Shown: positions 8,291 to 60,760 of the stretch, one piece after another | How positions within the stretch are numbered: position 1 is the first letter of the stretch | How the letters are laid out: each line of letters starts with the position of its first letter | Origin: Glaucostegus cemiculus | Lineage: Eukaryota | Direction: 5' to 3' | NCBI GenBank assembly: GCA_976551045.1 | Contig: CDPCPM010000247.1 | Coordinates: 186,001-250,000 of the forward strand | Length of the DNA stretch: 64,000 nt | Notes under the pieces: generated by a model | Databases searched by the model: none | Seen by the model: only the letters and a program-made list of their open reading frames with translations | What the model was told of the DNA's origin: nothing | Program-made: the position numbers and the translations under genes

Positions 8291-9993
8291 TGTTTGACTT
8301 GGACACCATAAAGCACTAGTAGTTCCAGACCAAATTCCCATTTACCCAGCAGATGCCTTCATGACCCATTAGAGAGTAAAAAAATCTGGAAGTAGCTGCA
8401 AGCAAACACATACTCCAGTTCAGATAGCATAGCTAATTGGTGGATGTTCCCGTTCTCCTGACTGACTTTGTAGATTAAAGGTAGCTGAACGTTTTCTGTA
8501 AAATCTTCTGAAAAAAGACATTAAAAGCACTAAGGTCTGCTCTGTGGTGTTTGTGATCACTCTCACTTCAAAAATTCTATCGTTAATAATGTTTTACAGT
8601 TTCTTTGTCAGGATACAGTAGAAGGCAACACAAAGAAAGGAGCAAAATGTTTCAGATCTTGAAGAAACAAGCTTGGAATCACTGTTCAACAATATTTACA
8701 GAAATAACATATGTCATGTGATCAGAGAAATTGGACTCCAGCCTCACCATACTCCATATAGAGTGCTGCAATAGCTTTATGGGATGCCTTGGAAAGAGCA
8801 AAGTAGATCACTAGTAAAGGACATTATTATATGTACTGTAACATATTGTGCCTCTCTCAATCTCTCTCATCTTTTGTACATCCTCAATGTCTTGTGTCTT
8901 TAACTATTGACTTTTTTTTATTAGCTATGACCACTGCTAAAGCTTCCTTCTTCACATGAAATATTAGTGCCTCTTACTATCCACTATTCTGATTTGGGCT
9001 GCTTCATTGTTACAGAATTATATAACCTTTACCCCTGTTTTAATTCTTGCTAACAAAAGGTCTCCAAACCAAATGTAGCAGTCACTGTTTTCCAGTTTCC
9101 ATTTTTCACCAGCACTAACCACTGAAGGTCAAACCAACTCGACGCATTTGTTTTAAAATCAACAATTGATTTCACTCTTCTAACCTTAACTCTTTATCAT
9201 TTTTTGAGCTTTAATTTGGTCTGTAGTGTCTTTTGGCTCATATATTTCTTATTGGCAGTTGCTTTGAACTTGATTTCCTGTATTTTCATGTGAAAATAAG
9301 GCAGCAACTGACAGTCACAGAAAATAAAATCAAAAATGCACTGACATTATGGTTAATTATTAACTTCCTTTGTTTCATGGTGTGCTTTTCTGTGGCTTCT
9401 GCATTAAATAAAAACAGTTTGCTCTGCGATTTTATTCACTGTGTTTCAGGCTATTAAATAGTTAACGGGCTACTGATGACTAAAGTGGCGAGTGACCCTA
9501 TAGAGAAAGTTGATTTAAAAGCATTGTTGGGCTATTCTGCCCCTTTGTTTAAGGTCTAGTTCCAAGTCTTATGTTAGCAGAAATGGAGTTTTCTCCTTGA
9601 TCCCACGGAACATGTGCTGATTAATGATCTGACTAAAAGGTTTGGGATACATAGTAAGTATTGCAATACCTATGGTGCCCTCCAGTTGTACTGTGAAAAC
9701 TCCACCAGCTCCACCTCTTCTTTCCCTCAGTTCCAATAAGAAGCAAATACTGGCTGGTAGTTGTTTTGACATCAGTGTCAATCTACCAATCATATCAAAT
9801 TTCTGTGTGTTCAAATGTGGTGCAGACCTGATGTATATATAATTACCAATGTAAACTATCACTCTGTGGACTGGTGAAAAGATATTGGAACAGGATTGGA
9901 ATTTCTCTTTTCACATAAATTACTTTTAAATATATTAATGTAGAATTTTGTTTTTCCTTTCAGGCTGCAGGAAAAGAACTTCATGGTACAAAC

Positions 9994-10048
9994 ATGATAT
10001 TGAGGATCATTCTTCTGATCAGCGCAAGTCTCTTAATTGATGCTGCAG
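9994..10048 (+). CDS. Coding exon 1 (signal peptide) of secreted Pro-rich C-type lectin-domain protein
   Basis: Acceptor tttttcctttcag|9964. ATG at 9994 gives MILRIILLISASLLIDAA+G, then donor gtaatt at 10049. Phase 1 joins in frame to the 18781 exon (G+CT = Ala). Confidence 0.85.
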
Positions 10049-11309
10049 GTAATTATAATTAGTTTGTTAACTTTGATGAAAATGTGATGTGTGTAAATAG
10101 AAGTGAATTCCAGTATAAAATGATAAGGGACTGTTTTGATTCTTTGAATTGTTACTGTACTCCCTCTGTAGCAAACTTATCCTTTTTTAGGTAAAGAGAC
10201 AAAACAATACATAATACCCAGGTACAGTCTTATTGAAACCCTTTATAACTTCTGTGAGGCATCTTTACTCCTGTACTGAAATCCTCTCAAAATAAACATC
10301 AAGGTACCATTTGTCTTCCTATTTGCTTATTGCATCTGCATGTAGGCTTTCAGTGACTTGGGTAAAAGAATACCTAGGTCCCTTTGAACATCAACATTAC
10401 CCAATCTCTCAGCATTTAAAAAAGTATTCAGTTTCTCTGCTTTGTTTTTTCTACCTTATATTGCATCAGCTTGTCGATATCACTTTGGAGTTTCTTTACA
10501 TTCTCCTCCCTACTCACAATCCCACCTAGCTTTAAATTGTCAGCGAACTTGGAAATATGACATTTGGCGCCTTCACACAATTATCAATATAGATGATGAA
10601 CAAATGGGCCAGGCCCCATTCTTTGTGGTAACCAACTAGTCTCACACACAGCAAACCTGAGAAACATCTGTCGATATCCACTCTTTGCTTTCTGTCTGAT
10701 GACTAATTTTCCCTCCATGTCTGTATACTACCTCCAACAGTCTGCTCTGATGTTGACCATTCCCTTGTGTGGGACCTTATTAAAAAAATCAAATATGCCA
10801 TATCCACCAGTCTCCCCTTATTTATCCCAGCTATTCTCACAGCTATTTAGCTTTGAGAGATGTTTGGGGTCAATATTACAGGTGTATTGTTATCGCCTAG
10901 CTTTCTTGAATACCACTAATGAAAATATGTTGATGGAAATTACCATTTAGGTTGTAGGTTAGCAAATATGTGAAATGGTGCATTTGTTATGGAAATATAA
11001 TGAGATATGACCTCTTGTATTTTGGAGCAGTTTAGAGTTGTGCAGTAAGATTAATATTAGTCAATGGTACTTGGTCCTCAATTAGAATAGCAAGTTGTTT
11101 TTAAAGCCACAACTTTTCAGAATTTTCTTTATTTACCATCTATTGGGAGCTGACAGAATGATGAAATACTGATAAGAATGCTACACGGTTGATACACTAC
11201 ATATAGCACCACACACTTGGTCCACTGCAGAGTGCTACATTGTTGGAGATACTATCCTTCAGATAATATGATAGAGTGAGGTTCACTTTAAGTGTCTAGC
11301 TGGATGTGA

Positions 11310-11920
11310 AATAAGAGCATGGGAGCTTAAGAAATAGAAACAGGAGTAAGCTTGAGCCTGCTCCAACATTCAACAAGACTGTGGCTGAAACTGTGTCAGA
11401 TCCACTTTACTGTTCCATCCCCAAATCAAAAAAACTATTGATCTTAGCCTTAAATATACCTGCTGACTGATCAGTTAGAATCTTCTGGACAGGAAAATTT
11501 TGTTTGTAGAAATTTCTCCTAATCTCAGCCTCGAATATCAAACCAGTAACCCTGAGACTGTCCCCTTAGGTCTAGACTCTCCAGATGGAGGAAGCAGGCT
11601 CTGGCCATCTACCCTTTCAATCCCCCTCTTAGAATCTTAAACATCTCAATCAAGTCAACTCTCATTCTTCTGATGTCTTGTGAGTAAAGGCTGATCTTAT
11701 TCAGTTACACTTCTTAAGACAACCCCCATTGTTCCAGAAACAGACTCAATGAATACAATAAGGCACTGGCTTCAAGTATATACCGTCTTCATTAAAACCA
11801 AACCTGCATGCACGACTCCAAGTCTATTTTCATTGAAGTCCTGGACAATTTAAATAGGACTTCCTTTCTTTTGTATTCCATCCCTCTAATAGTTAAGGCT
11901 AACATGTCAATTGCTTTGAA
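11310..11920 (-). mobile_element. Old CR1-family LINE 3' fragment
   Basis: Same degenerate 3' architecture as 7860-8290. Confidence 0.5.
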
Positions 11921-12294
11921 ACCAGAAAATGCTACAAACACTCAGTAGGTCCGCTGCATCTGTGGAAGTAGAAACAGAGTGTTTTCAACATTTTCTGGTT
12001 TTATTTCAGATTTCCAGTACTTGTATTTTCTTTGCTTTTCATATCAATTGCTTTTTAAGTACTTGCTCTATCTGTGTCTTCACTTTCTGCAACTCATGAA
12101 CTCATACACTGAAATCTCTGTATACACCAACATTTTTCATCCATCTCACCACAGAGGAAAAAACTCACATTTTCCTACTAACACCTAGCCCATTGTCTCT
12201 AGCCTTTTGCAGGATCTTTCTTTACTCCTTATGACTCATGAACTTTCCAAGTAGCTTTGTAACATATTGTACTCAACTAATCATTACTATGAAT

Positions 12295-13250
12295 TAGAAC
12301 ATAGAACAGTACAGCACAGGGTCAGACCCTTTGGCCCACAATGCCTGTGCGAACCATGATGCCAATTTAAACTAATCACATCTGCCTGCACATGGCCTAT
12401 ATCCCTGAATCCCCTGCCTTTTCTTGTCCGTCTAAATGTCTCTTAATTGTTGCTATTGTATCTGCTTCCACCACCTCCCCTGGAAGCACATTTCAGGCAC
12501 CCACCACTCTCAGAGTAAAAAAATGGCTTCACAAATCTCCTTTAAAGTTTCCCTCTCCCACCTTAAAGCTATGCCCTCTTGTATTTGATACTTTCACCCT
12601 GGGAAAAAGATCCTGATTATCTACCCTATCTATGCTTCTCATAATGGTATATACTTCTATCACCACCCCTTAACCTTTGACACTCCAGAGGAAACAATCC
12701 AAGTTTTTCCAAACTCTCCTTATACTAATAGTCTAATTGAGGCAACATCCTGGTGAATGTTTTTGGCACCCTCTCCAAAGCCTCCACATCCTTCCTGTAA
12801 TGCAACAACCAGAACTGCACAGAATAATCCAAATGTGGTCTAACCAAAGTTTTATACAGCTGCAACATAACTTCCCAACTTTTACATTCAGTCCCCTGAC
12901 CAATAAAGACAAGTATAACGTATGCCTTCTTTACCATCCAATCCACGTGTTGCCACTTACTGGGAGCTAGGGACTTGCACCCTGAGATCCCTCTGTACAT
13001 CGATACTCCAAAGGGTTCTGCCATTTACTGTGTACTTTCCTCTTACACTTGACCTCACAAAGTGCAACACCTCACACATGTCAGAATTGAACTTCATCTG
13101 CCATTTCTCCTCCCATATTTCTAACCGGCCTATATCCTGCTGAGTCATTTAACAACCTCCCTAACTATCCAAAACTCTACCAATTTTCACATCCTCTGCA
13201 CACTCACCAATCAGCACAACCACATTCCTGTCCAAGTCAGTTATATAAAT
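12295..13250 (-). mobile_element. CR1 LINE 3' fragment (end of RT plus tail)
   Basis: Minus-strand peptides EKWQMKFNSDMCEVLHF and QLYKTLVRPHLDYSVQFW..KDVEALERV; (ttctatg)n-like tail. Confidence 0.92.
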
Positions 13251-13498
13251 GATTTGGACAAAAATGTAAGTGGACTGATCAGTAGCTTGCAGAAGACAAA
13301 AAGCTGATGACTATCAGTACCCCATTGATAACAATCTTCTACTAGTAACATTCTTGTTATTCCCATCCTGTTTCCCACCCAGTTCTCCATTCGTACTAAT
13401 AGGTTGCCCACAAACTCGGAGACTTTATTTTAATGGAATAATATTTGATGCAAAACCTTTGTATTCAGTGTTTGAAAATCAAAACTTACTGCAATGAC

Positions 13499-14038
13499 AG
13501 AACATAGAACAGTACAGCACAGAACAGCCCTTCAGCCCACAATGTTGTGCCAACATTGCTGATCCCTATGTACAGAATGCCCATATTTCTATTTTCTTGT
13601 CATTCATGTGCCCATCCAAGCCCCTCTTAAAAGCCCCCAATGAATTTTCCTCCACCACCCTATCAGGCAACGCATTCCAGGCATCCACCACTGAGTAAAA
13701 AATGTACTCCTTACGTCTGTTCTTAACCTACCTCCTCTCACCTTAAATGCATGCCTTCTGGTATTGGATCGCTCAATAATGAGAAAAGATATTGCTTGTC
13801 CACCCTATCTATGCCCCTCATAATTTTATACACTTCCAACAGATCACTCCTTGGCCTCCACGCTCCACAGAAAATAGCCCAAATTTGTCCAGCCTCTCCA
13901 GATAGCACATGCCCTCTAATCTAGGCAGCATCCTAGTAAACCTCCTTTGCACCCTCTCTAAAGCCTCGACATCCTTCCTATAGTGAGGTGACCAGAATTG
14001 CATGCAATACTCCAAATGCAGCCAAACCAGAGTTCTAG
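13499..14038 (-). mobile_element. CR1 LINE 3' fragment
   Basis: HLEYCMQFWSPHYRKDVEALERVQRRFTRMLP; same 3' tail. Confidence 0.92.
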
Positions 14039-14299
14039 ACAGGTTCCCTTCTTCAAAAACTCTATCACATATATAAGACACAACATTTTCTTTCATAAAA
14101 CCATGCTGACTCTGCCTAGCTCATATGGACAATGCCAACAATGGATCAGGCTAACTGGTCCATAAGTCACTACTTTTTCCTCCCTCATTAGATAGCAGTG
14201 TTACATTTGCAAAGATTCAAACAGCTGTCGAGCTTACAAAATGTAAGGAATTTTGTAACATCATGACTAATATGTCTATTATCTCTTCATTCATCACAT

Positions 14300-15850
14300 G
14301 CAGGCTAGTCTAATGAGAAAAGGTAGGGCAGGTTAGACTTGTATCCACTGAAGCTTAGAAAAGTAAGAGGATTGGATTGGAACATATATAATTCTGAAAG
14401 GTTGTGACAGGTGTATGTGGAGAAGATGTTTGCTCTTGTAGGTGAACCTAGAACTTGGGGTTACTGTTTAAAAATAAGAGATCACCCATTTAAGACTGAT
14501 ACAAGGCAAATTTTTAAAATATCTTTGAGTGTTGTGAGTCTTTTGAACTTCCTCAAATGGTGAGTAAAAAACGTTTGAGTATTTTTAAGGCAGAGATAGA
14601 TTTTACTTTAATAAGCAAGGGGACAGTAATGAGGCATTCAGGTTACAGTCAGATTAGCCCGGTTCTTATTGAATAGTGGAGCGGGTTTGAGGGGCAATAG
14701 TCTACTCCTGCTTCTAATCTGTAAGTGCATGTCCACGGTGTTGTTTTAATTGCTATTCATTTCTTTCATACTTCCTCTTTAGTAATATTAACTTTCTCAC
14801 ATTCATTGCACCCTTGATTCCATTCCTGCTATATTTAGTTTGTCTTCTGCAGAATTATACCATCTCTTTATTCCCCATCAAAAGAAATTGATAAAACAAA
14901 GTATAACGTGGGATTACCCTAAGAAGAAAAAACAGATTGTAAAAGTTTCAATAGATGTATAAACATGAACAGATTACCAGAAATTAATCTATGTCCTTTG
15001 TTGACTGAGACAAGAGAAATTATATTGGGGAATAAAGAAATGGGAAAAGGAGAAATATTGTGTGTTTGCCTTCATGGAGAAAATACAGAAATAAAAACTA
15101 GTAATGGTGAACAGCAGGTTGAGGGTGAATGAAGAGCAGAAAGAAATTAGCATTAATAAAATACATTATTGGAAAAGCTTATGAGACTGTAAGCCAATAA
15201 ATCCCCAGGACCTGATGCCCCACTTCCCAAGACTTTGAAAGAAGTGGGAATAAAAACAGTGGATTTTTCAAAAATTCTATTGATTCTGAATTAAAGAAAT
15301 GTAATCCTACTGTTTAAGAAAGGAGAGAAAGAGAGAACAGGCCATTCAGCCTGGCATCAGTAGAAGGAAAAATGCAGGAATCAATTAGTAAGTGATACTT
15401 AGAAAATAATGATAAATTTAAGGAAAGTCAACCTGGATTTATGAAAGAGAAACTATGCTTGCAAATCTATTAAGGGTTTTTGAGGTTGTAACAAATGGAA
15501 TAAATAAGGAAGAACCAATGCATATGGTGGCTTTGGACATTCAGAAATCCATTGATAAGCTGCTATTGTTAAACAAAGTTACAGTGCATGGGATTAGGGG
15601 TAATATACTGGTGAGGACTGGGAATTTATTTTTTATAAAATATACTATAAACAGAGGGTAGGAAAAAATGGAACATTTTCAGATGATGATGCTGTGACTA
15701 GAGGGTTGCCATGCGGATTTTTGCTGGGGCCCTAACTGTTCATAATCTATATCAATGGTTTGTATGGGGGGGGGGGGGGGTGGCAAGTGTCATGAATCCA
15801 AGTTTGTCCATGATATAAATCTAGATGGCATTGTGGGCTGTGAGGAGAGT
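14300..15850 (+). mobile_element. Old degraded CR1 fragments (3' end and RT core)
   Basis: aaatccccaggacctgatg (KSPGPD), LANLLRVFEVVT..LDIQKSIDKL..VHGIRGNIL, and ggggccctaactgttcataatctatatcaatg (GP.LF.IYIN). Confidence 0.7.
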
Positions 15851-17036
15851 GCAAAGGGAAAGTATTCCACTAGTTGGAATCATACCTTGCACAAAGGTTG
15901 TTGAAAGTGAGTCAGTTATTCCAGCCCTACAATATCACTGCAGGAGAAACCTGAGGAATTATGCTAGGCCCAGCCACCTTCAGCTGCTTCATTAATAACC
16001 ATACATCCGTCATAACATCAGAAATGAGAATCTGTAACAATGCCTCCACAATATTCAGTTTAATTCACCTCAGCAAATGAAGCAGCCTATGCCAGCATGC
16101 AGAAAGGCACATCTGATTTCCCCTCTTTTTTTTGTACTAAGTTAGGATGTAGGAGATAAGAGTCTCATATCATATACATGTGCAGCCAGCACCTCTTTTG
16201 TGAATTCTTCAATTGACCCACATAAAAAATAGCATAATTCTGAAGAAAGAAATGCCAGGAGGAGGACTAACAGGTTTTCTGATCCTGATAAGAGAATCTG
16301 ATTCAACTGCTGGGCACAAGAGAGACCTTGTCCAGTTCAGGAGCCAAGGGCATGGCTACAATGGCAGTAAAGTTATTCCCTTATCACCTTCTACATCTGG
16401 ACTACCTATAGCCTCATTATTCTCAATAATCTCCCTGCTTCCTACAAAACAGTGAACCACTACACATCCTTTTCTTTTTACTAACATACTCAATACTTTT
16501 TAACAACAGTTTTTCACATCTTTTATGTGAATATTACCATAGCATCTTCACTCAATTTTCCACAAGTCTGTCACTAATACACTTCTTGCAGGCAAAGTTG
16601 CCATCGAACTCTATGCAGAGAAAGTGTCTAATATTCTCTGTACACTGTCCCTTTGAACAAACCATACTGGCTATCATGAGGATAAAGAAGGCCATGGTGA
16701 CTGTTAGTGCTGAAGGAGATGCTATACAGGATTTCTTCCTTTTACCTTTCTTATTTCTAGTTCAAGTTCCACATTTTGTATGACAAATGTCAGATGCTTT
16801 CAAACTGTCCAGCAACTATTCTATCTTCTCACAAAAGCTAAACCCTATCCTTGCTTCATTTATGGGTCCTGAAGCTGTTGAGCTACCTCTGCCAGAAGAA
16901 GTGGCCACCTCTCCTGGTTAGGTAGTATCATCTGAACTTATCCTCACAAGCTCCAACTCAAAGACTGCAAGGTCTGTGTACTTTAAAGGCAGCTCAAATT
17001 GATCTTAGTAACTACTGTTTCATCAGTGATGAAAAG

Positions 17037-17580
17037 GAATCATAGAACAATACAGCACAATACAGGCCCTTCAGCCCACCGTGTTGTGCCACCCTTCAAA
17101 CCCCATCTAAGACTATCTAACCCCTTCCTCCCACGTATCCCTCTATCTTAAATCTCTCCATATGCTTATCTAACAATCTCTTGAACTTGTCCAATGTATC
17201 AGCCTCCACCACCATCACAGGCAGCACATTCCATGTACCAACCACTCTCTGGGTGAAAAACCTCCCTCTGACATCTCCCTTGAACTTCCCACCCAATACC
17301 TTAAAGCCATGTCCTCTTGTTTTGAGCATCGGCGCCCTAGGAAAGAGGTGCTGGCTATTCACTCTATCTATTCCTCTCAATATCTTGTATACCTCTATCA
17401 TGTCTCCCCTTATCCTCCTCCTCTCCAAGAGAACAGCCCTAGCTTCTTTAGTCTTTCAACATAATCTGTACTCTCTAGTCCAGGCAGCATCCTGGTAAAT
17501 CTCCTCTGCATCTTCTCCAACGCCTCCACATCTTTCCTATAATGAGGCGACCAGAACTGGATACAGTACCTTAAGTGTGG
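17037..17580 (-). mobile_element. Relatively young CR1 LINE 3' fragment
   Basis: ERRRIRGDMIEVYKILRGIDRV..TRGHGFKV..RFFTQRVVGTWN is intact. Confidence 0.93.
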
Positions 17581-18046
17581 ATGAGCGTAGACTCACTTGG
17601 CATTCAAAGAGTGAAATCTCCTGTAACGGCGAAATGCCATTTTCATGCGTCCCACAGTGAACTAGGGTATTTCAGAGAGCAAATTGGCAGTTGTTGCATT
17701 TAACTGTTCAGTGCAGTGTTCAACAGATACTGTTCAATTTATGTCCAAATATCAGTGAACATCTTCCACTTTGTTATTCTTCCAAAATGCCATTTAGAGT
17801 GACACTTGGAAGATATGTATTCAGCATTTTTCACTTGAGTATTTAGGAGAATAATCTTTTTGTAAAATTAATCAATCTATCTTGATTTTATTTTGGGCCA
17901 TTTTAATAAATTTCATATATTCTCTGAAAACTAATAATACCTCTACTTGTACACGTAGCATCACTAACTTCAGGATTTCATTTGAAATGCTCTTTGCATT
18001 AACATTAAAATATTAAGCTTTATAGTTTATCATATTCTCTGACCAG

Positions 18047-18362
18047 GTTTGACCAGGGCAGCAGAGTCTAAAACTAGAGGACATAGGTTTAAGGTGGGAG
18101 GAGAAATATTTAAAAGGGGCCTGAGGGGCAACTGTTTCACACAGAGGATGGTGGGTATACAGAACAACCTACTAAAGGAAGCTGTACAGGTGGGTATAAC
18201 TACAACATTTAAAAGACATTTGGACAGGTACAAGGATAGAAAAGGTTTACAGGGATATGGCCCAAACAAAGGCAAAAGGGGCTTGCTCAGGTAGACAACT
18301 TGGTCGGTGTGGACGAGTTGGGCTGAAGGGCCTGTTTCCATGCTGTATAACTCTATGACCTT
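18047..18362 (+). mobile_element. CR1 LINE 3' fragment
   Basis: SKTRGHRFKVGGEIFKRGLRGNCFTQRMV; tail gggcctgtttccatgctgtataactctatg. Confidence 0.9.
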
Positions 18363-18780
18363 ACATTGGTATATTAAATTCAAAAGTTTAAAAAATGCAC
18401 TATAATTTTAATTCATTTAATTGATTAACTTCAATTTAATTAAACTTTAACTGTCAATGAAAGTGTAAATGCCTAAGCATTTATCATCTGAGGTAGCTGA
18501 ATAGTACTGTACTTTTCAGAAGTCATATGAACCTTGCTTCAGGCTTTGATATTAATTACTCTATTATGCTAATAAAAAATATTGATTCATGGGTAATTAA
18601 AAAGTTGAATTCACCTTTTATAATTTTCCATGCAGCTAACATTCAGAGTCCGCTTGTAATAGATAATTTGGGTTCTCTTTAGATTGGACACCAGGCATAT
18701 GTTTTAAACTGGCACGGATAGTATCGGTGGGAATTTCAGTTTGTAATTATTTCAGCTTTCTTTTTTTTATTTAATCACAG

Positions 18781-21700
18781 CTTTCGATATTCGAAAATTG
18801 TCAGGCATGTTGAAGAAGCGTCAAATATTACAGCGAGTGTATCCAGTAAATGAGAAACTTGTGAATCCTTATTACAATAACGAACAAGTTCAGCATCCAT
18901 ATCATGAATTAGTATCAAATCCTTATCCCGAAGTAGTACTTTATCATGATTATGCCAATGTCAAACAAAGTTACACTCAACATTTTCCTGCAAAATCAGC
19001 TTATGCTTTTCATGAGAATGAAAAATTAAAAGAATCCAATCTGGAAGGAGCACATTACATGATGGAATCACTTCCTGATCATGAAACTGGTCCCATAATG
19101 GATGGTGAAATGGGCCCTGACAGAAATCATGATGTAGGACAAGGCAATCGTGCTAAGTTACCACCTAATCCTTCTTTAAAAGTAATATATTCTTCTCATT
19201 CTGATGCAGTACCTCAGCCTAATGCTGAAGAGGATACATTACTATATCATGAAATGGCACCTTCACTTTATCCTGAATTGAAGTTACCTTCTTCGCCTAC
19301 AGAGATAGCTCTGAGTTCTCCTGAAAAGGAAGCAGCACATAATCCTAAACTGGTACAACCACTTTCACCTGAGCAAGCATCACCGCCTTTGAAAGAATCA
19401 CCTCAGGCTTTCCCTAAAGTGGCACCAGCACCTAAACCGCCCCCTCGGTCGTCACCCAAGCTGGCCCCTCCGTCATCTGAATCACCCCCTCTGTCATCAC
19501 CCGAACCGGCCCCTCCATCGTCTGAATCACCCCCTCTGTCGTCACCCGAACTGGCCCCTCCGTCGTCTGAATCACCCCCTCTGTCGTCACCCGCACCGCC
19601 CCCTCCGTCGTCTGAATCGCCACCTCCGTCGTCACCCGAACCAGCCCCTCCGTCGTCACCCGAACCGCCGCCACCGTTGTCTGAATCGCCACCTCTGTCA
19701 TCACCCGAACCGGCCCCTCTGTCGTCACCCGCACCACCACCTCCATCGTCTGAATCACCCTCTCTGCCGTCACCCGAACCAGCCCCTCCGTCGTCTGAAT
19801 CGCCACCTCCGTCGTCACCCGAACCGGCCCCTCCGTCGTCTGAATCACCCCCTCCGTCGTCACCCGCACCGCCACCTCCGTCGTCTGAATCACCCCCTCC
19901 GTCATCACCCGAACTGGCCCCTCCGTCGTCACCCGAACCGGCCCCTCCGTCGTCTGAATCACCCCCTCCGTTGTCACCCGCACTGCCACCTCCGTTGTCG
20001 CCTGCACCGCCACCTCCGTCGTCACCCGCACTGCCACCTCCGTTGTCGCCTGCACCGCCACCTCCGTCGTCTGAATCACCCCCTCTGTCGTCATCCGAAC
20101 CGGCCCCACCGTCGTCTGAATCACCCCCTCCGTCGTCACCCGAACCGGCCCCTCTGTCGTCTGAATCACCCCCTCCGTCGTCACCCGAACCGGCCCCTCC
20201 GTCGTCACCCGAACCGGCCCCTCCGTCGTCACCCGAACCGGCCCCTCCGTCGTCTGAATCACCCCCTCTGTCGTCACCCGCACCGGCCCCTCCGTCGTCA
20301 CCATCTGAAGTGCCTCCTCTATCATCACGCGAAGTGCTTCCTCAGTCATCCATAGTGCCCCCATCATCAGCCGAACTGCCATCTACGTCACCACCCGAAC
20401 TGCCCCCTCAGTCACCTCCTGAAGCACCCCCCCTGTCATTAGCTGAACTGCCCCCTCCATCATTACCTGAAATGCCCCAATCACAACTCCCATCACCCCC
20501 TCCGTCACCAACTGAAGTGCCCCCTCCATCACTACCCAAAATGCCCCCTCCGTCATCAACTGAACAACCCCCTCCTTCACCACCCGAAGTGCCCCATCCG
20601 TCGTCAGCCGAACCGGCCCTTCCGTCGTCAGCCAAAGGGCCCTCTCCATCACGACCCGCATCGCCCCCCTCACCACCTGAAGCAGCTCCTCCGTCATCAC
20701 CCACACCATCTCCTCTTTCACCACTCGAAGTGCTCCCTCCATCACTGCCTGAACTGCCCCCTCTGTCGTCACGCGAAGTGCCCTCTCCGTCATCACCTGA
20801 AACATCCCCTCCATCTTCACCTGAAGCGCCCCCTCCACTTGAACTGCCATCTCCACCGTCATCTGAAATTCCATCTCCATCTGGAGTGCCACCACCCTCT
20901 TCACCTAGAATACCACTGCCATCCTCACCCAATGCGCCACTTCGACCTGCACCTGAAGTAGCAATGTTGCCATTATCTAATGTGACATCTCCTTCGGCAG
21001 AATCAGCCTCTCCACCTTTATTCACTGTACCACCTCCGCCCATGGCGGCACCTCCGCCTCCACCCCCACTCGTGGCGGCACCTCCACCTCCACCCGCACC
21101 TCCGCCTCCATTCACTGTGACACCTCCACTGGAGTTGCCATCCCCACCTTCACCCAATGTACCACCTCTGTCAGCACCTGAAGTGACATCTCATGACATT
21201 AAATCTCTGGCAGCGGCACCTCCACCCGCAGCGGCACCTCCACCTCCACCTCCACCCGCGGCGGCACCTCCACCTCCACCTCCACCCGCGGCGGCACCTC
21301 CACTGGAGTTGACATCCCCACCTTCACCCAATGTATCACCTTTGTCAGCACCTGAAGTGACATCTCATGACATTAAATCTCTGGCAGCGGCACCTCCACC
21401 TCCACCCGTGGCGGCACCTCCGCCTCCACTCACTGTGACGCCTACACTGGAGTTGCCATCCCCACCTTCACCCAATGTACCATCTTTGTCAGCACCTGAA
21501 GTGACATCTCATGACATTAAATCTCTGGCAGCAGCACCTCCACCCGCGGCAGCACCTCCGCCTCCACCTCCACCCGCGGCGGCACCTCCGCCTCCACCTC
21601 CACCCGCGGCGGCACCTCCGCCTCCACCTCCACCCGCGGCGGCGGCACCTCCATCTGTGGCAGCACCTCCTCCACCTTCATTCACTGTGACACCTACACT

Positions 21701-23795
21701 GGAGTTGCCATCCCCACCTTCACCCAATGTACCACCTCTGTCAGCACCTGAAGTGACATCTCATGACATTAAATCTCTGGCAGCAGCACCTCCACCCGCG
21801 GCAGCACCTCCGCCTCCACCCGCGGCGGCACCTCCACCCGCGGCGGCACCTCCGCCTCCACCTGTGGCGGCGGCACCTCCATCTGTGGCAGCACCTCCTC
21901 CACCTTCATTCACTGTGACACCTACACTGGAGTTGCCATCCCCACCTTCACCCAATGTACCACCTCTGTCAGCACCTGAAGTGACATCTCATGACATTAA
22001 ATCTCTGGCTGATCCCAAAATAATACCAGAATTAGTGCATCCCCAACTAGAACCAGTCCCTTTGGTAGGAACTCCACCCTCATCTCAAATGGCATCTCTG
22101 ACAGTAACCGAGGTAGCATCTCCTCCCTCATTTGAATTACCTCTCCTTTATTCTAAAATGAATCCTCTTCATTCTCCTGAAGCAGCAATTCTGCCTTCTC
22201 CTACAGTGGTGCCTCCACCACCATCCGCAGTGGCACCTCTGTCTTCTTCTGAAGTGCCTCCTTCACCAGGGCCTGATGTGACACCTCCATCATCAGTTGG
22301 AGGAGCATGTCCATTATCACCTGAGGTGCCATCTCCACATTCACCTGATGGGGAACCTTCAACGACACCTAAAGTGTCATCACCACAATTACCCGAGGTG
22401 GCACCTCCATCGCCACCAGATGCAGCATCTCCCCCTTCCTCTGAAGGGGCACCTCTGGCATCACCTCCATCTTCACTCAATGCTTCTCTTCCACTATCAC
22501 CTAAAGTAGCACCTTTGCCATCAATCAATCTGGTATCTCCGCCCAAAGGGACATCTCCACCTTCACCCTTTGTGGCACCTTTGCCTTCACCTGAAAAAGT
22601 GCTTCCACCTTCACTTAAAGTGGTATCTTCAGCCTTGCCTGAAGGAGTGGCTCTGAGTTCTCATGAAGTGATGCCTCCATCTCTTTCTGAACTGATTTCC
22701 ATACGTTATCCTGAAGTGATGCCGCTACCTTATCCAGAAGTGATGTCCGCATCTCACCCCAAAGAAAAGTCTTCATCTGACCTTGAAGTGGAAACACAGC
22801 CAGTTCCTGAAGTAATGTCTCCAACTTTTCCTTCAAAAGGGCCTTCTGCTGAAACAGCATTTTTAACTAATCCTGAAGCAGTACCTCGGTCTTATTCTAA
22901 AATACGGTCACCACCTTATCCTGAAGTGGTATCTCAATTTTCTCCAGAAGCAGAATCCCCATCTTCTGCTAACATGGCACATTTGGAAAATCTTGAAATG
23001 GAATCTCCTTCTTACCAGGAAGTGATGTCTCCACCTAATCCAGAAGTAGCATCTCACCCTCAGTTTGAAATTATGTATCCAAGCAATTCTGCAATGATCT
23101 ATCAGCTAAATCCTGAAATACCCCCTCCACTGAATCCCGAGGCGACAACTCTGTCCGATCCTGATGGGGTAGCACAGCTTTATTCTGAAGTGGTACCTAT
23201 ATCTTATCCTAAAAGAATATCACCGCCCCTTCATTTTAACATGGAACGTAAACCATATTCCAGAAAGGAACGTCCAGGTTATCCTAGGATGGATCCTCCA
23301 ATGTATCCTAAAATGGAACCTCCACTGTATCCTAGAATAGAACCCTTCCCATATACTGGAATGGACTCACCACCTAATCCTGGATTGGAACATCCACTTT
23401 ATCCAGGAATGGAACCTCCACCTTATCCTGTTATGGTACCTCCACTGCATACCAAAATGGAACCTCCAGCTAACTCTAAAGGTAAACTTCCATCTTATCC
23501 CAAAGTTGGATCACATCCTGAAACTAAACATCCACTCAACCCTGAAGAGTTATCTCCAACTCACCCTGAAGTGGCAGCTCCATTATACCATGAAAAAGCA
23601 TATCCACATTTTTCTGCTATGAAACAAAAACTAGATGACTCTTATCCTAATCTCAGCATAAAGGTTGAATCTCATTCAGACACACCAGCCCAGCAATACA
23701 AACAATCCTGTCTACCTGGATGGACTCATTACAACTATCTATCATCTTGTTATCAGTTCTTCCCTAAGATGAAGGTAACCTGGTTAGAAGCTGAG
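18781..23795 (+). CDS. Giant 5,015-nt coding exon 2: Pro/Ser/Ala/Glu-rich repeat region plus start of the C-type lectin domain
   Basis: Polypyrimidine acceptor ttttttttatttaatcacag|18781. Uninterrupted frame (the 1687-aa ORF of the track) ending SCLPGWTHYNYLSSCYQFFPKMKVTWLEAE, a typical long-form CTLD start. Donor GAG|gtaagg at 23796. Confidence 0.93.
19440..20300 (+). repeat. Coding minisatellite, 21/24-nt units (SSESPPP / SSPEPAPP)
   Basis: Near-identical tandem units such as cctccgtcgtctgaatcaccc and cctccgtcgtcacccgaaccggcc. Confidence 0.95.
21110..22010 (+). repeat. Five copies of a ~90-100-nt coding block (LELPSPPSPNVPPLSAPEVTSHDIKSLA) separated by variable Ala/Pro microsatellites
   Basis: gaagtgacatctcatgacattaaatctctgg occurs five times (~21180, 21355, 21500, 21750, 21980). 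Confidence 0.95.
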
Positions 23796-25090
23796 GTAAG
23801 GCAAAATAATCCTGATATTTTCCTTTTGTTTAATGTGATGATTTTGGGGATGTTGTGTTGATATTGCTCTCATTACAAAGGAAGTATGCCTTTTATACCA
23901 ACTTCAATATTTATGATGAGGGTACTTGCACTTATAAGTAGAGTGTTCTGGAGTTTTGACCCATTGATAATGAAACAATGACAACAGTCATCAAATAAGA
24001 ATGATATGTGATACTGATGGGAATTTGAAAATGACCATCCTCCACTGTGTCAGTTCCTCTTGCCCTTGTAGGATATTAAAAGTCAGGGGTTTGGAGGTCA
24101 TCCTCTACCTCATCCTAGGATGAACCCTCTGCTCTATCTTACACTGGAACCTCCACCAAATCCTAGAATGGAATGTCTGCCATAAAATAGAATGGACTCT
24201 CCACCTTATGCTTGAATGGACTGCTGACCCAACCCTATAACAGAAACACTGCCTTTTTAAAGAATGGATTCTCTATCTTACTGACAATAGTTACGTTTCA
24301 GCAATATTGGAAGGAACAGATTTACAGGCTGAACATGATCACACAGATGCTTTGTCCAGAACGGTGTTGAGTTTTCTCAGTTGCTTCCATTCGGAAAAGT
24401 GAAAGATATTTCATCACACATCTGGCTTGCGGCATACTGATATTAGAAAATCCTTGGGAAGCATTAGGATGTGAGCCACTCAGTGATGAATTCCCTGACG
24501 TCTGACTTGCGCTGGTAGTTGCAGACTCTACAAGGTGGTCTGTTTGAGTTTCTGGTTTATGTTAATGTTGGGATATTTGACAATTATAATGGATATAAAT
24601 TGTCCCAAATTTCATTGACTCACGCAGCAAAAACAATAATGACAACACTTGGTGGAATGATAGGTATCAACATGCCATTGACATATTGGTAAGTTCTCAT
24701 ATTAGAGATTAATTTTAATCTTTATTTTGGTTTACAATTTCTCCAACAAAATTAGCATCACTATGAACAGAGAAGAATTAGAATGGTGAAAGGTACACTC
24801 AAGGTCCTGGTTTGTTTCCAGCTTGATTCATTTCAGTTAATTAATGCCATAAAAAAAGGTACTGAACTATTGGAACCACAGTATTATTGTAATTTCCCCT
24901 GCCATCTCTCCCCTTTCTCAAAGTCATAAAACATAATCATTTCAAAAGCCTTGCCTACTCTGTGCCATTTGTTGTGTATAAGCAACCTATTCAACCATGG
25001 GGGCTTCACTGTTCAACCCAATAGTACACAATAACCATACAAGTCGAGTTGCATCTGAATGTAGGAAAACAAAGTGCTACATGGATTTGT

Positions 25091-25842
25091 TCCAATCATT
25101 AATCCTCTGATTTAAGATCACAGGTATTGCAGGTTACATTTTATCTAAAATCTATCTGAACTATTCCTTATCAGATGGTGTTCAGCAGATTACTTGATGT
25201 AGCCGAGGCCACCTGAGGCTGTCTGAAAGGTGTTAAAATTTGGAGGTGTCATCACCTTAACATCTCCCAACATGTTAGGGCCCATGAACCCCAAGTTCAT
25301 GATATAACTTCTGTACATATTTCCTCTTCATCCACCACCCACAATTTCCTTGAAGATGCTACAAAGAAAATAGTGAGAAAAAACTTTAGAAAATTTTTGT
25401 CACAAGACAAAGATTCCACTCTGACCCCTGAAAGTGATCATAGTATTTAGTCTACAATACCTAACATCCATCTATCATGCTCAGAAACTACAGAACTGCT
25501 TTCTGACTCTTTTCAAAGAAAGGAGCAACAGACTGGCCCAGAAATCTAGGCAAAAAAAATCCTTCTAATCCTGGTCAAAGACAAGACAATGCTTCCACAA
25601 GACATGCTGTGGAGATCTCATAGAAGCTGGGCAAAGACTTGGGGTTCATGGGCCCTAACATGTTGGGAGATGTTAAGGTGATGACACCTCCAAATTTTAA
25701 CACCTTTCAGACAGCCTCAGGTGGCCTCAGCTACATCAAGTAATCTGCTGGACACTATCCGATAAGGAATAGTTCAGATAGACTTCAGATCAAGTGTAAT
25801 CTGCAATACTCGCGGTCTTAAATCAAAGGATTAATGATTGGA
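25091..25842. repeat. Long inverted repeat: arms 25091-25296 and 25637-25842, 340-bp spacer; possible non-autonomous DNA element
   Basis: Manual alignment: 206-bp arms, no indels, 14 mismatches. Flanked by ggatttgt (25083-25090) and ggatatgt (25843-25850). Confidence 0.9.
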
Positions 25843-28743
25843 GGATATGTTCTTCAGTAATTGAAGATCAAACACTACAGATGCTAGCTACCTGAAATTT
25901 AAAAAAACACAGAAAATACTGGAAACAGTAGGTCAGGCAACATCCATGGAAAGAGAAATAGTGTTAACATTTCAGGTCAAAGATATTTCATTTCCTAATC
26001 TAGCTAATATTACTAACCCAAAATCAGTAACAGAGAAACAGTATCATGACCTCTTTTGAACTGTGTTCTAATACTGCAAAAATTTGGATTTTAAGGTTCC
26101 TTTCAGATACTTGAATGCTGAATTCTTATGAAATACTGAATTATTGCTATATATTTTTTTAATCAGAAGCATTCAGAAGGAGTTTGCCCATCTGGGTGAA
26201 GATGAAGAAAACAGGGTAGACCCTTCATCATCTGATCATGCCCAGTAGTTTCTCCCATGCAGCCCTCATCAGAACCAGCACAGCAGTAATTTCAATCAGC
26301 TTCAGGCTACCTTGAAAACATGAGGAGGAAGATGAGGTCATTCAGGAGAACTTGTTGACAGCAGCTCATGATTATCAACAATTGATTTCAATAAATTGGA
26401 CTCACAGTACACAGTTAGATTTGTTTTTCATGGTTTGCTCATCAAATCACTCAATACTGAGCTCTACTCCTCCAGTTAAGAAATCTCTGATCCCTTTGGG
26501 AAGCTGTTCATTCTTCATAGTAGGGGAAGACATCAGAAACTTCCAACAGAAAATCTCCAAACATATTCTCCAGAAATACTCTCAGAACTACTTCCTCTTC
26601 CTCCTTGATTACTGCATTCATAGCCAAGGCCATATGATCCCACTATTTTATTCCAGTATGATGCCAGAAGATGAGTGTGACTGGGTCCTTAGAACTGAGG
26701 TGGCAGTTGTTTAACTGAGGCCAATGTCCCAGGAAGGGCTGCTTTCAGCATGTGTTTGCAAAATGGCCTAAAGCTACTCCAGTGCTGGCATCAATGAGGT
26801 TTCCAAGGAGGAAACTAATGGACAACAAGATTTTTGGTTATCATGCCTGTTAGCCACTGATGTTAACCACCGGTTCTCTGGGCTCACAGACATTGAGGAA
26901 ACAGACTGAAAGGTCTTAGAAGCCCTGGAAGGTATAAGCATTTAATACAAAGGTTTGAGGAAAACATCAGTTCCAGTGGCTGACTGAAAATTAACTCCAC
27001 ACCTGCATGAATTTGCTGCTGCTGCATAATTTCCATTTGATGATCACTAAGCTGCTTTTCCCTGCATTTCTCTCCCCATTAGTGTTGTGCAATGTTATAT
27101 TCAAAGAGATAATAGCATGCTCTTCAATCAATTACCACTGTGAATGACCATATCAATTAATATCAATTGATGAATAATATCAATAAAACATACCAATTAA
27201 TAAAGATAATCAGGATAATATATTAGAAGGCTGGGAGGTCTCAGCATTGCTACTGACAACAGTTGTAAGTTCTGAAACTATAGTCCTGAATTTCCTTGTG
27301 CTTACTACTTTCTATGCTGATGCGATTTGCTGTAAACCTCAAAGTAACAGTGCTTATTAGACTGGATGATATCATGGTGAAAGTCTGTCTGTAATTTCAG
27401 TGATTTATCCAATTCAGATCTCGGAGATTAAAAGGGGATGTAGGACCAGAAAGAGTAACTGTATGGTGCTTGACATTTATAGACTGAATCATCTTGAAGG
27501 ACTGAGAAACTTGCATTCCTCAACTATGAATGGGAGGTAATGAAAGGCAAAAAAAATATCAAAATGAAAAAGATGTAAAAATGTACGAAAGATAAAACCA
27601 TAGCATTGTCTCAAGATAAACATTGACATTATAATAATGAAACCCAGATTCAAAGTGATGGGAAATAAACTCTAAAATTAGGAAATTTAAAAGTGGCTAA
27701 ATGTGGAATTATATTGCATTGGTACTAGAGATATCAAAAACTCTGGTTTCATTTAAGCACTAACACATTGTTATGAATCACAGTTTTCTTTAGATGGACA
27801 GGAAAGCCTTACTCATCTGCATTTTCCTTAAGATTCTGTCCAGTACCAGTGCCAAAGAATCTGGTGCTTGAGAGCTTTTCAGAAAGATGGACATTGAGCA
27901 AGTGTAAAATATTAAAAATGTAACAGCAAGAAATTAGATGCTTCCCCCCCCCCCCCCAGTGTTACATTTTCCAAAATTGCTGTTACCTGGAGTGAATCAG
28001 ATTAGCAATTGCTTCCAATGAAATTGCACCAATCTCAAAATTAGATCAGGCACTTCAGGTAACGTCAGCATGACTGATATTTTCCCAAGGTCTGTGCGCA
28101 AATTAATGAGAAAATAATGCTGTGCTGGACTCAGTGATCACTCAGGTAAAACAAAATGTGGGGCTAGATGCAACAGGCAACCCTGGGAGGATGGACAGAA
28201 ATGCACATGGTGAAAACCCTCTTCACTGCAACCTCCCTCTCCTCCTTGGAAGTCTGTGTGCAACTAGTGTCTGGCTATTCTTGAGATTCAAGGACTGATG
28301 ATTTCCCCCTTCCCCCAAGTGTTGTCCACAAGCCAGTGGAAACAATGTTACAGCAACGCTTCTCCCATTGGGATCCATGTAAGTTGCAAATCATGGCTCT
28401 TTCTGAAGAGGAAACCACATTAACACATATTTGTTCTTAACCAATTTGATGATCTCTTTGGGGGATCCAGTTTAGAGCTAGCAACCAGAAAAGGTGCAGT
28501 CCAACTTCAAGACAACAATATTTCAGTATTTCCCTTTACTTTTTATGGTTAATTTGTGAGTTATTACAATTACATCATAATTGTAATTTGTTACAATCTA
28601 TGACTTTTTTTTTTGAATGGGCAGCATTTTTGGAATCCCTGGAATCTTCTTCAATGAAAAACTGATTACAGAACAAGGCACAGAACTGAGCTTGATAACT
28701 GGGGGAGAAAAGCAAAACTGAAAATGTTTTCTTTTCCATGTAG

Positions 28744-28884
28744 CTACAGTGCCGGCAATATGTGCCAAATGGCCACCTTGCCTCCATCCACTGGAATGAA
28801 CATAATCAATTCATTCAAAGTCTGATTAAGGCACAGGACCCATCACAACCCACCACTTGGATTGGTCTTAGTGACTGCTATGAG
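28744..28884 (+). CDS. Coding exon 3, C-type lectin domain
   Basis: ttttctttttccatgtag|LQCRQYVPNGHLASIHWNEHNQFIQSLIKAQDPSQPTTWIGLSDCYE|gtaaag. 141 nt, phase 0-0, with HLASI and WIGL motifs. Confidence 0.95.
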
Positions 28885-29066
28885 GTAAAGTTCCCTCGCT
28901 TCTTATAGCCCTAATATTACTGTGTTATCACGTAGCCTCCTAAAATATTCATAGTGAATCCTATGCTTTTATTAAAGGTTATCATCCATTTGAAAATAAA
29001 CAGTTCACATTGCGTGCTTTTCACAAAAATAAGGACATGCAAATAATGATATACTTTTTCACATAG

Positions 29067-29178
29067 GAGGGTATTTTTCTGTGGAGTGATGGATCTATGC
29101 TAGATTTTACAAAATGGAACAATGACCAACCTGACAACGTAAAAGAAAATGAGAACTGTGTGAGCTTTAACTCTGGAG
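29067..29178 (+). CDS. Coding exon 4, C-type lectin domain with QPD motif
   Basis: ctttttcacatag|EGIFLWSDGSMLDFTKWNNDQPDNVKENENCVSFNSG+G|gtaggt. 112 nt, with WSDG, QPD and ENCV motifs. Confidence 0.95.
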
Positions 29179-30886
29179 GTAGGTTACCATTTTAGACTGC
29201 ATTTCAAAGGCAGCTTCACCCAAACTAATTCCAGCTATACTAGAGAACCTGACCGATAAACTAAAGCAATAAAGGCAACTTTCCAAGTAGGGCAATGGAG
29301 TGAGGAAGACTCAGAAGCAGCTGTGTTGTATGGGTTGACAGTTTGTCCATTGGGAACCGAGGTAGTATCTTGTCCAAAATAGATAGAGGAATATTCATAA
29401 AGAAAATTACTAAAGACCTCCTCAGTAATTTTGATACAAGTGTGCCATGTTATAGATTCCTCATTCAGAATACACCTGTCAGCTTACTATAGGCATAGCT
29501 TGGGACTGGTACTACTTTGTAGTGAATTTTCATCAGTCCCAGAAATAGCACAATAACATCAAAATCTGATCCTTTGACACAAACAGTGGGATCAGTTGAG
29601 GAACATAAAATTTGAGTAAACAAAAGATGGCCATATGGTTTATACCAGTTCAACCTGTATTGGAACATAAATAACTGACTCAGACTTGTATACTGCAGTT
29701 ACAAGATGTGGAGAGTGCATTTTCCTTCTGTTAAGGTAGCCAAGGTGACAAACTGAAACATACTGCTGACCTCTAGATCACAAGCATATGTCTGACCATA
29801 CCTAAAAGTAGATGTTCGGGATTGGGGTGTGCACTGCACAGAGTCATCTACATGAACACAGGGGTTTTTGGAAGTTTGAGCAGGCTGCTTCTTGTAGGCA
29901 AAAATCATATAGCTGCTGGAAAATGGAAATTAAACCAGAAAATCCTGGAAATGATCAGCTGATCAGGATCAGGCAACATTTGTAGTGACAGAAAAAGAAG
30001 AATATGTTCCAAAAGAACATATTTCTTTGGAGAATCTGACAACAAAGCTCCTCTTACTGTGGTTCTCAGGCACAAGCAACCTGAATGGTACAATGGAAAT
30101 CAAATCCTGGGAGGATGTATTGTGTATTGAGAGTGTGAGGGAGATCAGGAGATGGGATTCTGCATCATGGGGGATCTGCAACAAGGGCATTACAAGATAA
30201 GATAGACACGATATCTTTACAAGGCCCAGATTCTGGGTGGCACTGTTTATAGTTGTTACATAGCCAGTGCTGATTGGCTGGAGGTGGGAAAGGGAGGTAG
30301 TGCTGTCTTCTCTGAATCAGGGGTGTTGTCCTATCACACAGGGGTTTGGGAGGGGGCAGAGTGGCAGTACAGACTCTGATTGTCAGATGGAGCCTGGATC
30401 AGAGACTACTTTCCTAAGCTTCATCTTCTATCACCTTTCAATCAGCAACAATTAAACCTACTTCCAACTAAATAAGTGTTTTCTTGGAATAGTCACTTTG
30501 CGTCTACAACTATAGTCATACTTTCTGTAAAATATACTCCAGCCTGTTTCAAAGTATTCAGAAGATTCTATTCTTGGCCACATTTGTTGTCAGACCAGTA
30601 ATCTTCCCTTCCCTTTCCACAGACAGGGCTCATTTATTGCACTGCTAAAATGACCTATAAATCATGGACGTTTTCTTCCTGTGATGAAGGGAAGTTTTTG
30701 TTTATGTTGAAGGGCTCTTTTGGGAAATAGGAATCTTTGATCTGAATGTAAGGTATAAACTAATGCTCACACACACTATGAAATAGAGGAAAAACATATT
30801 AAATCATTTCACACATCAGTATGATTAAATGGTCAATAACAATCTGAAAGATTATTGTAGCTCAGCATAGTTCTTTTTTATTCCAG

Positions 30887-30960
30887 ATACTGAAGGCAGA
30901 TGGAATGATACAGACTGTACAGAAGATCTACCTTTCATCTGCACCTACAAGCTCGCCTAA
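30887..30960 (+). CDS. Terminal coding exon 5, C-type lectin domain with WND motif
   Basis: ttcttttttattccag|(D)TEGRWNDTDCTEDLPFICTYKLA-TAA. Phase matches exon 4. No transmembrane segment. Confidence 0.95.
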
Positions 30961-31074: not shown

Positions 31075-31080
31075 AATAAA
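31075..31080 (+). promoter_or_regulatory. Candidate polyadenylation signal of the lectin gene
   Basis: AATAAA about 115 nt after the stop codon; further AATAAA copies near 31400-31430. Confidence 0.4.
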
Positions 31081-44148: not shown

Positions 44149-44205
44149 CTGGAGTGGGGTGGTCGAGGCCTCAGCTGGAGAGGCCGCCCCGATAGCCGTC
44201 GCCAT
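44149..44205 (-). CDS. Putative first coding exon of an unidentified gene (MATAIGAASPAEASTTPLQ)
   Basis: cccATGGCG start inside the CpG island, 19 open codons, consensus donor CAG|gtgagt. Confidence 0.4.
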
Positions 44206-44386
44206 GGGAGGGGCTCGCCGCCTGTCAACGTCGGTGAGGGTTTGCAAGGGTTTTATGAGATAACTTTAACCTCCAGAAAACGAAGCAAAATCAGTAAAAC
44301 AAAACTTTTTTTTCCCAGGTCTCCGAGTCGGGAATCCCGACCCCGCCACCGGTTGGGCGTGGACTCCAGCCATGGAGTCGGTAACA

Positions 44387-60593: not shown

Positions 60594-60760
60594 NNNNNNN
60601 NNNNNNNNNNNNNNNNNNNNNNNNNNNNNNNNNNNNNNNNNNNNNNNNNNNNNNNNNNNNNNNNNNNNNNNNNNNNNNNNNNNNNNNNNNNNNNNNNNNN
60701 NNNNNNNNNNNNNNNNNNNNNNNNNNNNNNNNNNNNNNNNNNNNNNNNNNNNNNNNNNNN
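60594..60760. other. Assembly gap (167 N)
   Basis: Run of n. Confidence 1.

Follow-up and report, generated by a model that had tools for sequence, protein, structure and literature searches.

What kind of protein is encoded by a gene in which one 5,015-nucleotide (nt) exon specifies a long proline-rich chain and the exons that follow complete a lectin domain? The question is raised by a gene on the + strand (9994..30960) of a 64,000-nt stretch of Glaucostegus cemiculus DNA (contig CDPCPM010000247.1, positions 186,001 to 250,000), which is referred to below as the window. In our opinion, its features are best explained by an elasmobranch protein derived from a soluble lectin that would help to build a network in a gel or coat outside the cell, and we put the probability of this reading at about 0.55.

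Judged by its sequence, the gene is real, intact and of the secretory type. The five coding exons predicted in a first-pass annotation, which had been made from the letters alone, indeed join in one frame into 5,397 nt that encode 1,798 residues and a single terminal stop; all four introns are GT-AG introns with pyrimidine tracts, in phases 1, 0, 0 and 1. The protein (computed mass 187 kDa, computed isoelectric point, pI, 4.7) is laid out as a signal peptide, an acidic Pro-rich neck of 1,642 amino acids (aa), for which ~1,640 had been estimated, and a single C-terminal C-type lectin-like domain (CTLD), the whole neck lying in the 5,015-nt exon. This exon contains no stops in the coding frame, compared with 59 and 120 in the other two frames; the longest open frame spans 1,671 codons, compared with a median of 228 and a maximum of 540 when the bases were shuffled 500 times locally, within 150-nt blocks. 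When tblastn was run with a related protein of the stingray Hypanus sabinus (P0001), all five exons were matched in the expected frames.

The first coding exon (9994..10048, 55 nt) encodes the signal peptide, residues 1-19, of which 15 are identical in the stingray protein, and is followed by a phase-1 intron. Hydrophobic 19-residue windows are confined to the first ~25 residues; the best one after residue 20 scores only 1.08 on the Kyte-Doolittle scale, so that there is no transmembrane helix, in agreement with the first-pass annotation. Exon 2 (18781..23795), which aligns with P0001 from end to end, encodes the entire neck and the first 29 residues of the CTLD. The remainder of the CTLD is divided among exon 3 (28744..28884, 141 nt), with C1 (Cys1693), helix 2, the WIGL motif and an extra Cys1735, followed by a phase-0 intron after WIGL; exon 4 (29067..29178, 112 nt), with the QPD motif and C2 (Cys1768), followed by a phase-1 intron between C2 and C3; and exon 5 (30887..30960, 74 nt), with the WND motif, C3, C4 and the stop. 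A candidate polyadenylation signal, AATAAA, is located at 31075..31080, 115 nt past the stop. At the other end, positions 9964..9993 probably form the 5' untranslated part of the signal-peptide exon: P0001 aligns from 9967 and another relative, P0011, from 9946. A pyrimidine-tract acceptor at 9963 implies a non-coding exon upstream. Both of these database models carry an extra N-terminal prefix before the signal peptide (residues 1-32 in P0001, 1-48 in P0011), and since the end of the prefix aligns with the predicted untranslated region at 9946-9993, the models probably start too early.

How widely the gene is distributed was addressed by searches with its separate parts. Residues 1450-1671 of the exon-2 product gave one match among 139 scored candidates, namely P0001, a protein of 1,406 aa that RefSeq labels "mucin-2-like". 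It aligns end to end with the window protein and has the same full layout; identity is 52% in the neck core and 56-58% in the later neck, and in the CTLD 113 of 137 residues are identical. The two necks differ in length by ~420 aa, and the neck pattern appears to be that of a spacer constrained in composition more than in sequence. The stingray CTLD matched two shorter proteins among 46 scored candidates, one from the sawshark Pristiophorus japonicus (P0009, "brevican core protein-like" in UniRef) and one from the catshark Scyliorhinus torazame (P0010, scyTo_0019611). Both begin inside Pro/Tyr repeats and run into CTLDs that are, respectively, 79% and 74% identical to that of the window protein. 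The N-terminal 230 aa of exon 2 were also used in a HMMER search that was exhaustive, and two proteins, P0001 and P0011, reached E<=0.001. In the latter, the signal peptide and 45 matching residues lead into a CTLD that lacks its first part; it is most likely a mis-spliced model. The other three are probably orthologues of the window protein, sharing its octamer repeats next to the CTLD and, wherever testable, its exon junctions, and CTLD identity across sharks and rays is 67-82%.

A full-layout stingray protein and three fragmentary relatives, two of them from named sharks, thus place the gene across elasmobranchs; as far as these records go, it is common to batoids and both shark superorders, and the protein, originally described as lineage-specific, is not so in a narrow sense. 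No bony-vertebrate or chimaera orthologue was present among the 139, 53 and 46 scored candidates, these searches being too narrow to show absence. Seven of the eight matches in the 53-candidate search were multi-CTLD receptors with 28-37% identity and were set aside. In the ESM Atlas, P0009 was matched only to CTLD/REG4 clusters of a generic kind, and P0011 had no feature match. It should be noted that the automatic names "mucin-2-like" and "brevican core protein-like" are wrong: Pfam finds Lectin_C only in P0001, P0009 and P0010, and no mucin-2 or brevican domains.

The neck is an old, degenerate octapeptide repeat. In each of the four necks, identity between non-Pro residues eight positions apart (lag 8) is higher than in any of 200 local shuffles, with an autocorrelation z of 16.6 in the window protein, 9.6 in the stingray, 19.2 in the sawshark and 4.6 in the catshark; lags 16 and 24 likewise exceed the shuffles, whereas lags 3, 6 and 9 do not. 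Autocorrelation is the unbiased measure here; an octamer consensus fit, seeded with a guessed unit, is illustrative. Tandem Repeats Finder (TRF) identifies 24-bp units at three places. The exon-2 product contains 31% Pro, 16% Ser, 9% Ala, 8% Leu, 8% Glu and 1.6% Gly, and the pI of the neck is 4.69. The first-pass description of this chain as extensin-like does not hold. Extensins are defined by Ser-Pro4 repeats together with Tyr cross-link motifs. The window protein shares with them and with repetitive proline-rich wall proteins of plants its Pro and Ser content and its Tyr-bearing Pro repeats, but SPPPP does not occur (SPPP occurs eight times), there is one Y-x-Y and no VYK, the chain is acidic rather than basic, and there is no homology. 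Vertebrate prolyl-4-hydroxylase, moreover, requires X-Pro-Gly. The absence of collagen-type Gly-X-Y had been stated correctly (no G..G..G match).

Several blocks can be distinguished along the neck. The exon opens with a candidate propeptide of 13 residues (18783..18821) that ends in LKKR and is followed by Gln; LKKRQ (residues 29-33) is kept in all three sequences covering that region, and LKKR may be a processing site, possibly for a convertase. A Tyr/His-rich block with 13 Tyr follows (18822..19415, residues 33-230), for which no Pfam family was matched; over the positions aligned with P0001, residues 20-230 show 61% identity. The Ser/Pro/Glu core (19416..21005) is acidic and free of Tyr, consists of repeats of 7, 8 and 15 residues (24- and 45-bp units) and carries 36 of the 47 S-x-E motifs of the protein. 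Next is an Ala/poly-Pro block (21123..22010) with five copies of a unit containing EVTSHDIK. The five-copy block has no counterpart in the stingray, which has one diverged copy; it is, by this comparison, a recent expansion, and EVTSHDIK, which had been proposed as a search peptide, will not find relatives. Degenerate octapeptides with a lag-8 signal occupy 22011..23222 (residues ~1096-1499), and residues 1101-1500 are 56% identical to P0001. The octamer is clearest in the block adjoining the CTLD (23223..23708), where it reads approximately x-P-P-Y-P-R/K/E-M-E and places Tyr eight residues apart, at 1511, 1519, 1527, 1535 and 1543; the best-preserved Tyr octamers, near-perfect P-P-Y-P-R-M-E copies, are those of sawshark P0009. 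Both full-length proteins have three blocks: a first one with 13 Tyr within 200 residues, a Tyr-free stretch of 960 (window) or 489 residues (stingray), and a second Tyr-rich end. A fold model of the whole P0009 record, repeats included, built on a shallow alignment, is unstructured and of low confidence (predicted local distance difference test, pLDDT, 41.7), which is neutral with regard to a polyproline-II rod, the shape inferred for the neck in the first-pass annotation. The repeat core differs from the rest of the exon in CpG content as well (observed/expected 0.88 at 19400-22100 versus 0.22-0.41 elsewhere), which is consistent with recent amplification or low germ-line methylation.

The head is a long-form C-type lectin-like domain by its Lectin_C profile, cysteines, WIGL motif and fold. 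It starts at 23709..23795 with Cys1662 and Cys1675, and a phase-0 intron lies just upstream of C1. Pfam Lectin_C is matched successively by exons 3, 4 and 5, the first of them above the cut-off (E=1.9e-5; 94% identity to stingray P0001), the other two weakly and below it. All six canonical cysteines (1662, 1675, 1693, 1768, 1785 and 1793) are present, together with WIGL at 1729, QPD at 1758 and WND at 1780. WIGL is found in four of the five domains of the family and WIGF in one; pI is 4.5 in the window protein and 4.5-5.4 in all four domains measured. In the window protein, all ligand positions of Ca2+ sites 1 and 2 (numbered as in MBP-A) are filled, including QPD, the Glu before C2 and WND. 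Ca2+-dependent binding of galactose (Gal) or N-acetylgalactosamine (GalNAc) is therefore a fair prediction for Glaucostegus cemiculus. The pair of motifs that had been taken as the mark of a Gal-type lectin is, however, not conserved in the family: QPD is present in four of five members, and the four with a last exon have WND (one), WSD (two) or WNE (one), the stingray being QLN/WNE and the sawshark and P0011 QPD/WSD.

A seventh cysteine, Cys1735 (28876-28878), follows WIGL by three residues and is kept in all five proteins with no evident partner. When exon 3 is aligned to the type II antifreeze protein of the sea raven, this cysteine comes last and falls on residue 69 of the chain, which we take to be a Cys engaged there in an extra disulfide, its partner position being Asn here. 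Matches of exon 3 to Protein A were dismissed as chance similarity of a short helix. The sawshark CTLD, 79% identical to that of the window protein, was modelled (pLDDT 85.7; of five models, two are above 80) and compared with known folds. It superimposes on lithostathine (Z 21.6, root-mean-square deviation, rmsd, 1.9, 130 residues aligned), the aggrecan CTLD (Z 21.0, rmsd 1.4, 126 aligned) and rattlesnake galactose lectin (Z 20.8, rmsd 2.0, 134 aligned). These three, Endo180, CEL-I and type II antifreeze protein lie within 1 Z of each other; being tied, the fold matches do not single out any CTLD group.

Intron positions are more informative. According to the survey by Zelensky and Gready (PMC514892), the CTLD of group VII, group XII and AFP-like genes is interrupted by introns before C1, behind WIGL and between C2 and C3, and the window gene has its CTLD introns at the same three positions. 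This match with the REG, type II antifreeze and eosinophil major basic protein genes identifies it as a small soluble-lectin gene whose linker has become enormously long. What distinguishes group XII (eosinophil major basic protein, PRG2/PRG3, Fugu EMBPL) is an acidic neck; its members share with the window protein a signal peptide, an acidic neck, one soluble CTLD and the introns (PMC514892). The first-pass annotation had known of no named vertebrate gene with this layout. None was found here either, as far as the literature and protein searches reach, but group XII comes close, although its necks are much shorter (Fugu EMBPL has 30 residues there, as against 1,642 aa of Pro-rich octamers; PMC514892). 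The window protein further departs from that group in having an acidic CTLD, no Gly at position 4 of WIGL, and Ca2+ and sugar ligands; on account of the first two differences we do not file it in group XII, and the length of the neck keeps it out of neck-less group VII. Group VII and its allies (REG/lithostathine, ovocleidin-17/struthiocalcin, the galactose-specific snake lectins RSL and BJcuL, and type II antifreeze proteins) share the long-form CTLD and the tied top folds, but consist of the CTLD only (~130-150 aa) and are 27-34% identical. CLEC19A, whose CTLD may be similar, and CLEC11A, which has a short acidic neck rich in Pro, Ser and Thr, are soluble vertebrate CTLD proteins, both short; neither was among the search matches, and the CLEC19A literature yielded nothing on sharks. 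In sea-urchin SM50 the CTLD precedes the repeats, and the protein has some 434-445 aa as compared with 1,798 here. Like the window protein, SM50 combines a secreted CTLD with Pro-rich repeats (PMC8144736, accessible portions); it also has a Gly-rich region, as against 1.6% Gly here.

Taken together, these comparisons suggest the following origin and mechanism. The ancestor would have been a small soluble single-CTLD lectin of the REG, snake galactose lectin, type II antifreeze or eosinophil major basic protein gene type, in which the short linker between signal peptide and CTLD grew within one exon to 1,200-1,640 residues of Pro-rich octapeptide repeat. The protein would be secreted and probably trimmed at LKKR. 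Its Tyr-free Ser/Pro/Glu core, unfolded or rich in polyproline II and probably O-glycosylated, would serve as a hydrated spacer with an upper limit of ~505 nm when fully extended (0.31 nm per residue), while the Tyr-rich blocks at both ends could act as self-associating or cross-linkable stickers. The CTLD would bind Ca2+ and, in Glaucostegus, Gal/GalNAc-ended glycans on neighbouring glycoproteins, and the extra Cys may pair two heads into a two-handed linker. The protein as a whole would thus be both cross-linker and spacer of a network in an extracellular gel or coat. As to the site, our guess would be, in order of preference, a secretion of the reproductive tract such as egg jelly or sperm matrix, the surface mucus, and the ampullary gel. 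The accessible part of PMC11496042 characterises the jelly of catshark eggs as a mucin hydrogel in which the antimicrobial substances have yet to be identified. A narrower proposal, possible but tentative, is that of a structural protein of an elasmobranch-specific material (the matrix of sperm bundles, the ampullary gel, or a layer of the egg jelly or capsule), built as a natural block copolymer with Tyr-rich octapeptide stickers on either end of a hydrated Pro/Ser spacer of several hundred nm and a disulfide-paired lectin head. If true, this would be a vertebrate matrix-protein design outside mucins, lecticans, collagens and SCPPs, hidden under wrong automatic names.

Several observations weigh against a network former. 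The neck has a single Cys, which is not conserved, and N-terminal disulfide polymerisation of the kind seen in gel-forming mucins is therefore not expected. Mucin PTS regions have 40% or more Ser+Thr per 100 aa, a level reached in none of 1,699 windows of the window protein (maximum 33) and in 47 of 1,275 windows of the stingray protein; the neck is thus not a typical mucin spacer. The 8-residue period may merely reflect old 24-bp amplification, and sugar binding may be dispensable, since the sugar site is not conserved across relatives. Furthermore, only one of the four relatives is full length: just two sequences, both batoid-like, show the long neck, the records of named sharks begin within the repeat, and P0011 skips most of the large exon.

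Other explanations have to be considered against this background. An acidic Pro-rich chain phosphorylated by FAM20C, like the P/Q-rich SCPPs, joined to a crystal-binding CTLD like that of ovocleidin-17, lithostathine or SM50, would make a mineral-matrix protein of enameloid, dentine, tesserae or otoconia. The 47 S-x-E motifs of the window protein (22.9 expected, z 6.0) and the 18 of the stingray protein (11.5 expected, p 0.024) would fit such a role, as would the acidity of both neck and CTLD (pI 4.7 and 4.5), the presence of lithostathine and struthiocalcin within the tied fold matches, and the action of C-type lectins in eggshell and spicule mineralisation (PMC8144736 and PMC9363672, accessible portions). 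We nevertheless consider it unlikely. Of the 47 motifs, 29 come from one amplified repeat block, so that the sites are not independent; the control motif S-x-x-E is enriched about equally (z 5.3); four S-x-E sites are common with the stingray, and the two shark fragments show no enrichment. None of the genes that flank OC-17/XCA, LMF2 to CHKB, was recognised in the window, and no such gene is named in the accessible part, supplementary selected lists included, of a catshark cartilage-mineralisation transcriptome (PMC13188829). A defence lectin of the PRG2/REG3 type, its acidic neck being a pro-part or mucus tether and its CTLD agglutinating or killing microbes, seems to us improbable as well. 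An acidic neck and these intron positions do define group XII (PMC514892), REG3 and REG4 are among the sequence and fold matches, and the changes at the sugar site between species could be due to diversifying selection. Yet a neck of more than 1,200 aa far exceeds what a pro-part needs, the WIGL motif lacks the position-4 Gly typical of EMBP and AFP, and the degree of CTLD identity across sharks and rays is, in our judgement, that of a domain evolving slowly for a pathogen-facing lectin. Eosinophil major basic protein, moreover, is strongly basic; with all four measured CTLDs acidic, there is no cationic toxin for the neck to neutralise.

The CTLD might also be a protein-binding module, as in the lecticans (aggrecan, brevican, versican, neurocan) with tenascin, and the whole protein a spacer in the matrix of nervous or connective tissue, comparable to a lectican; we regard this as very unlikely. 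Lecticans likewise have a C-terminal CTLD, preceded by a long Ser/Pro/Glu-rich region in a very large exon. The aggrecan CTLD, 37-39% identical to the one described here, is the best single-domain match in the Protein Data Bank (PDB) to the family profile (83 bits, compared with 81.4 for BJcuL) and has the highest identity (39%) among the top fold matches; the UniRef label of the sawshark record and the lost sugar site of the stingray point in the same direction. However, Pfam detects no Ig, Link, EGF or CCP domain, there are only three Ser-Gly (glycosaminoglycan) sites, and the CTLD introns follow groups VII/XII, whereas those of lecticans lie elsewhere. Highly doubtful, too, is the idea that the giant exon goes mostly unused, in which case splicing from a donor within it would yield a short lectin as the real product and the long form would exist only as a prediction. 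P0011 does join the first ~45 codons of the large exon directly to exon 3, but a CTLD joined in this way lacks two strands, part of helix 1 and its two leading Cys, and the same record carries an unrelated N-terminal prefix. The exon contains neither a GTRAG donor nor a strong acceptor; its frame is open and protein-conserved throughout in the stingray, and the shark records keep repeats adjoining the CTLD.

No description of the gene was found in the literature searched, most subscription journals being outside its reach, nor was any paper found for the Hypanus, Pristiophorus or Scyliorhinus torazame records. The accessible portions of PMC514892, PMC8144736, PMC13188829, PMC11979771, PMC11496042, PMC11053709, PMC9363672 and PMC9999432 do not mention it; an expression table for 31 catshark tissues exists (PMC11979771, accessible portion). 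Since the domain in the head is a common one and the basic gene structure is known, we do not see a new class of system here. The novelty lies in size and layout: amplification of a 24-bp unit within an exon has made a 187-kDa tethered lectin out of a small soluble-lectin gene, relatives occur in both sharks and rays, and all four database records found are mislabelled or broken. Little is known of the proteins in several elasmobranch secretions, and the gene is a concrete candidate for one of them. Its introns are shared with groups VII and XII and the fish AFP-like lectins, and the jawed lineage to which it belongs branched off early; for these reasons it is also relevant to the relationships among these groups.

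The window contains no second CTLD gene, according to a motif scan, tblastn and Pfam searches of 121 open frames of at least 72 aa outside the large exon, and no Rfam match. On the - strand, 53612-54043 is the last exon of another gene; it has no Pfam match, and its C-terminal ending is, we presume, that of IQSEC3. A further candidate exon lies near 63085-63160, and a possible short terminal exon (49690-49742, - strand; pyrimidine tract, AG and ~15 codons to a stop) lies downstream of the IQSEC3-like last exon. A CpG island at 44100-44950 (observed/expected 0.81) includes a 22/44-bp tandem array (44387-44728) and, near 44149-44205 on the - strand, a possible first coding exon with a GTGAG donor, whose gene would run towards the lectin gene. 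An assembly gap of 167 N (60594-60760) is far from the latter. Within the intron after the giant exon, a 206-nt inverted repeat (25091-25842; arms 93% complementary and 340 nt apart) looks like a non-autonomous DNA transposon. Elsewhere, 45900-46750 holds a decayed Tc1/mariner-like transposase remnant with a weak DDE_3 match below the cut-off.

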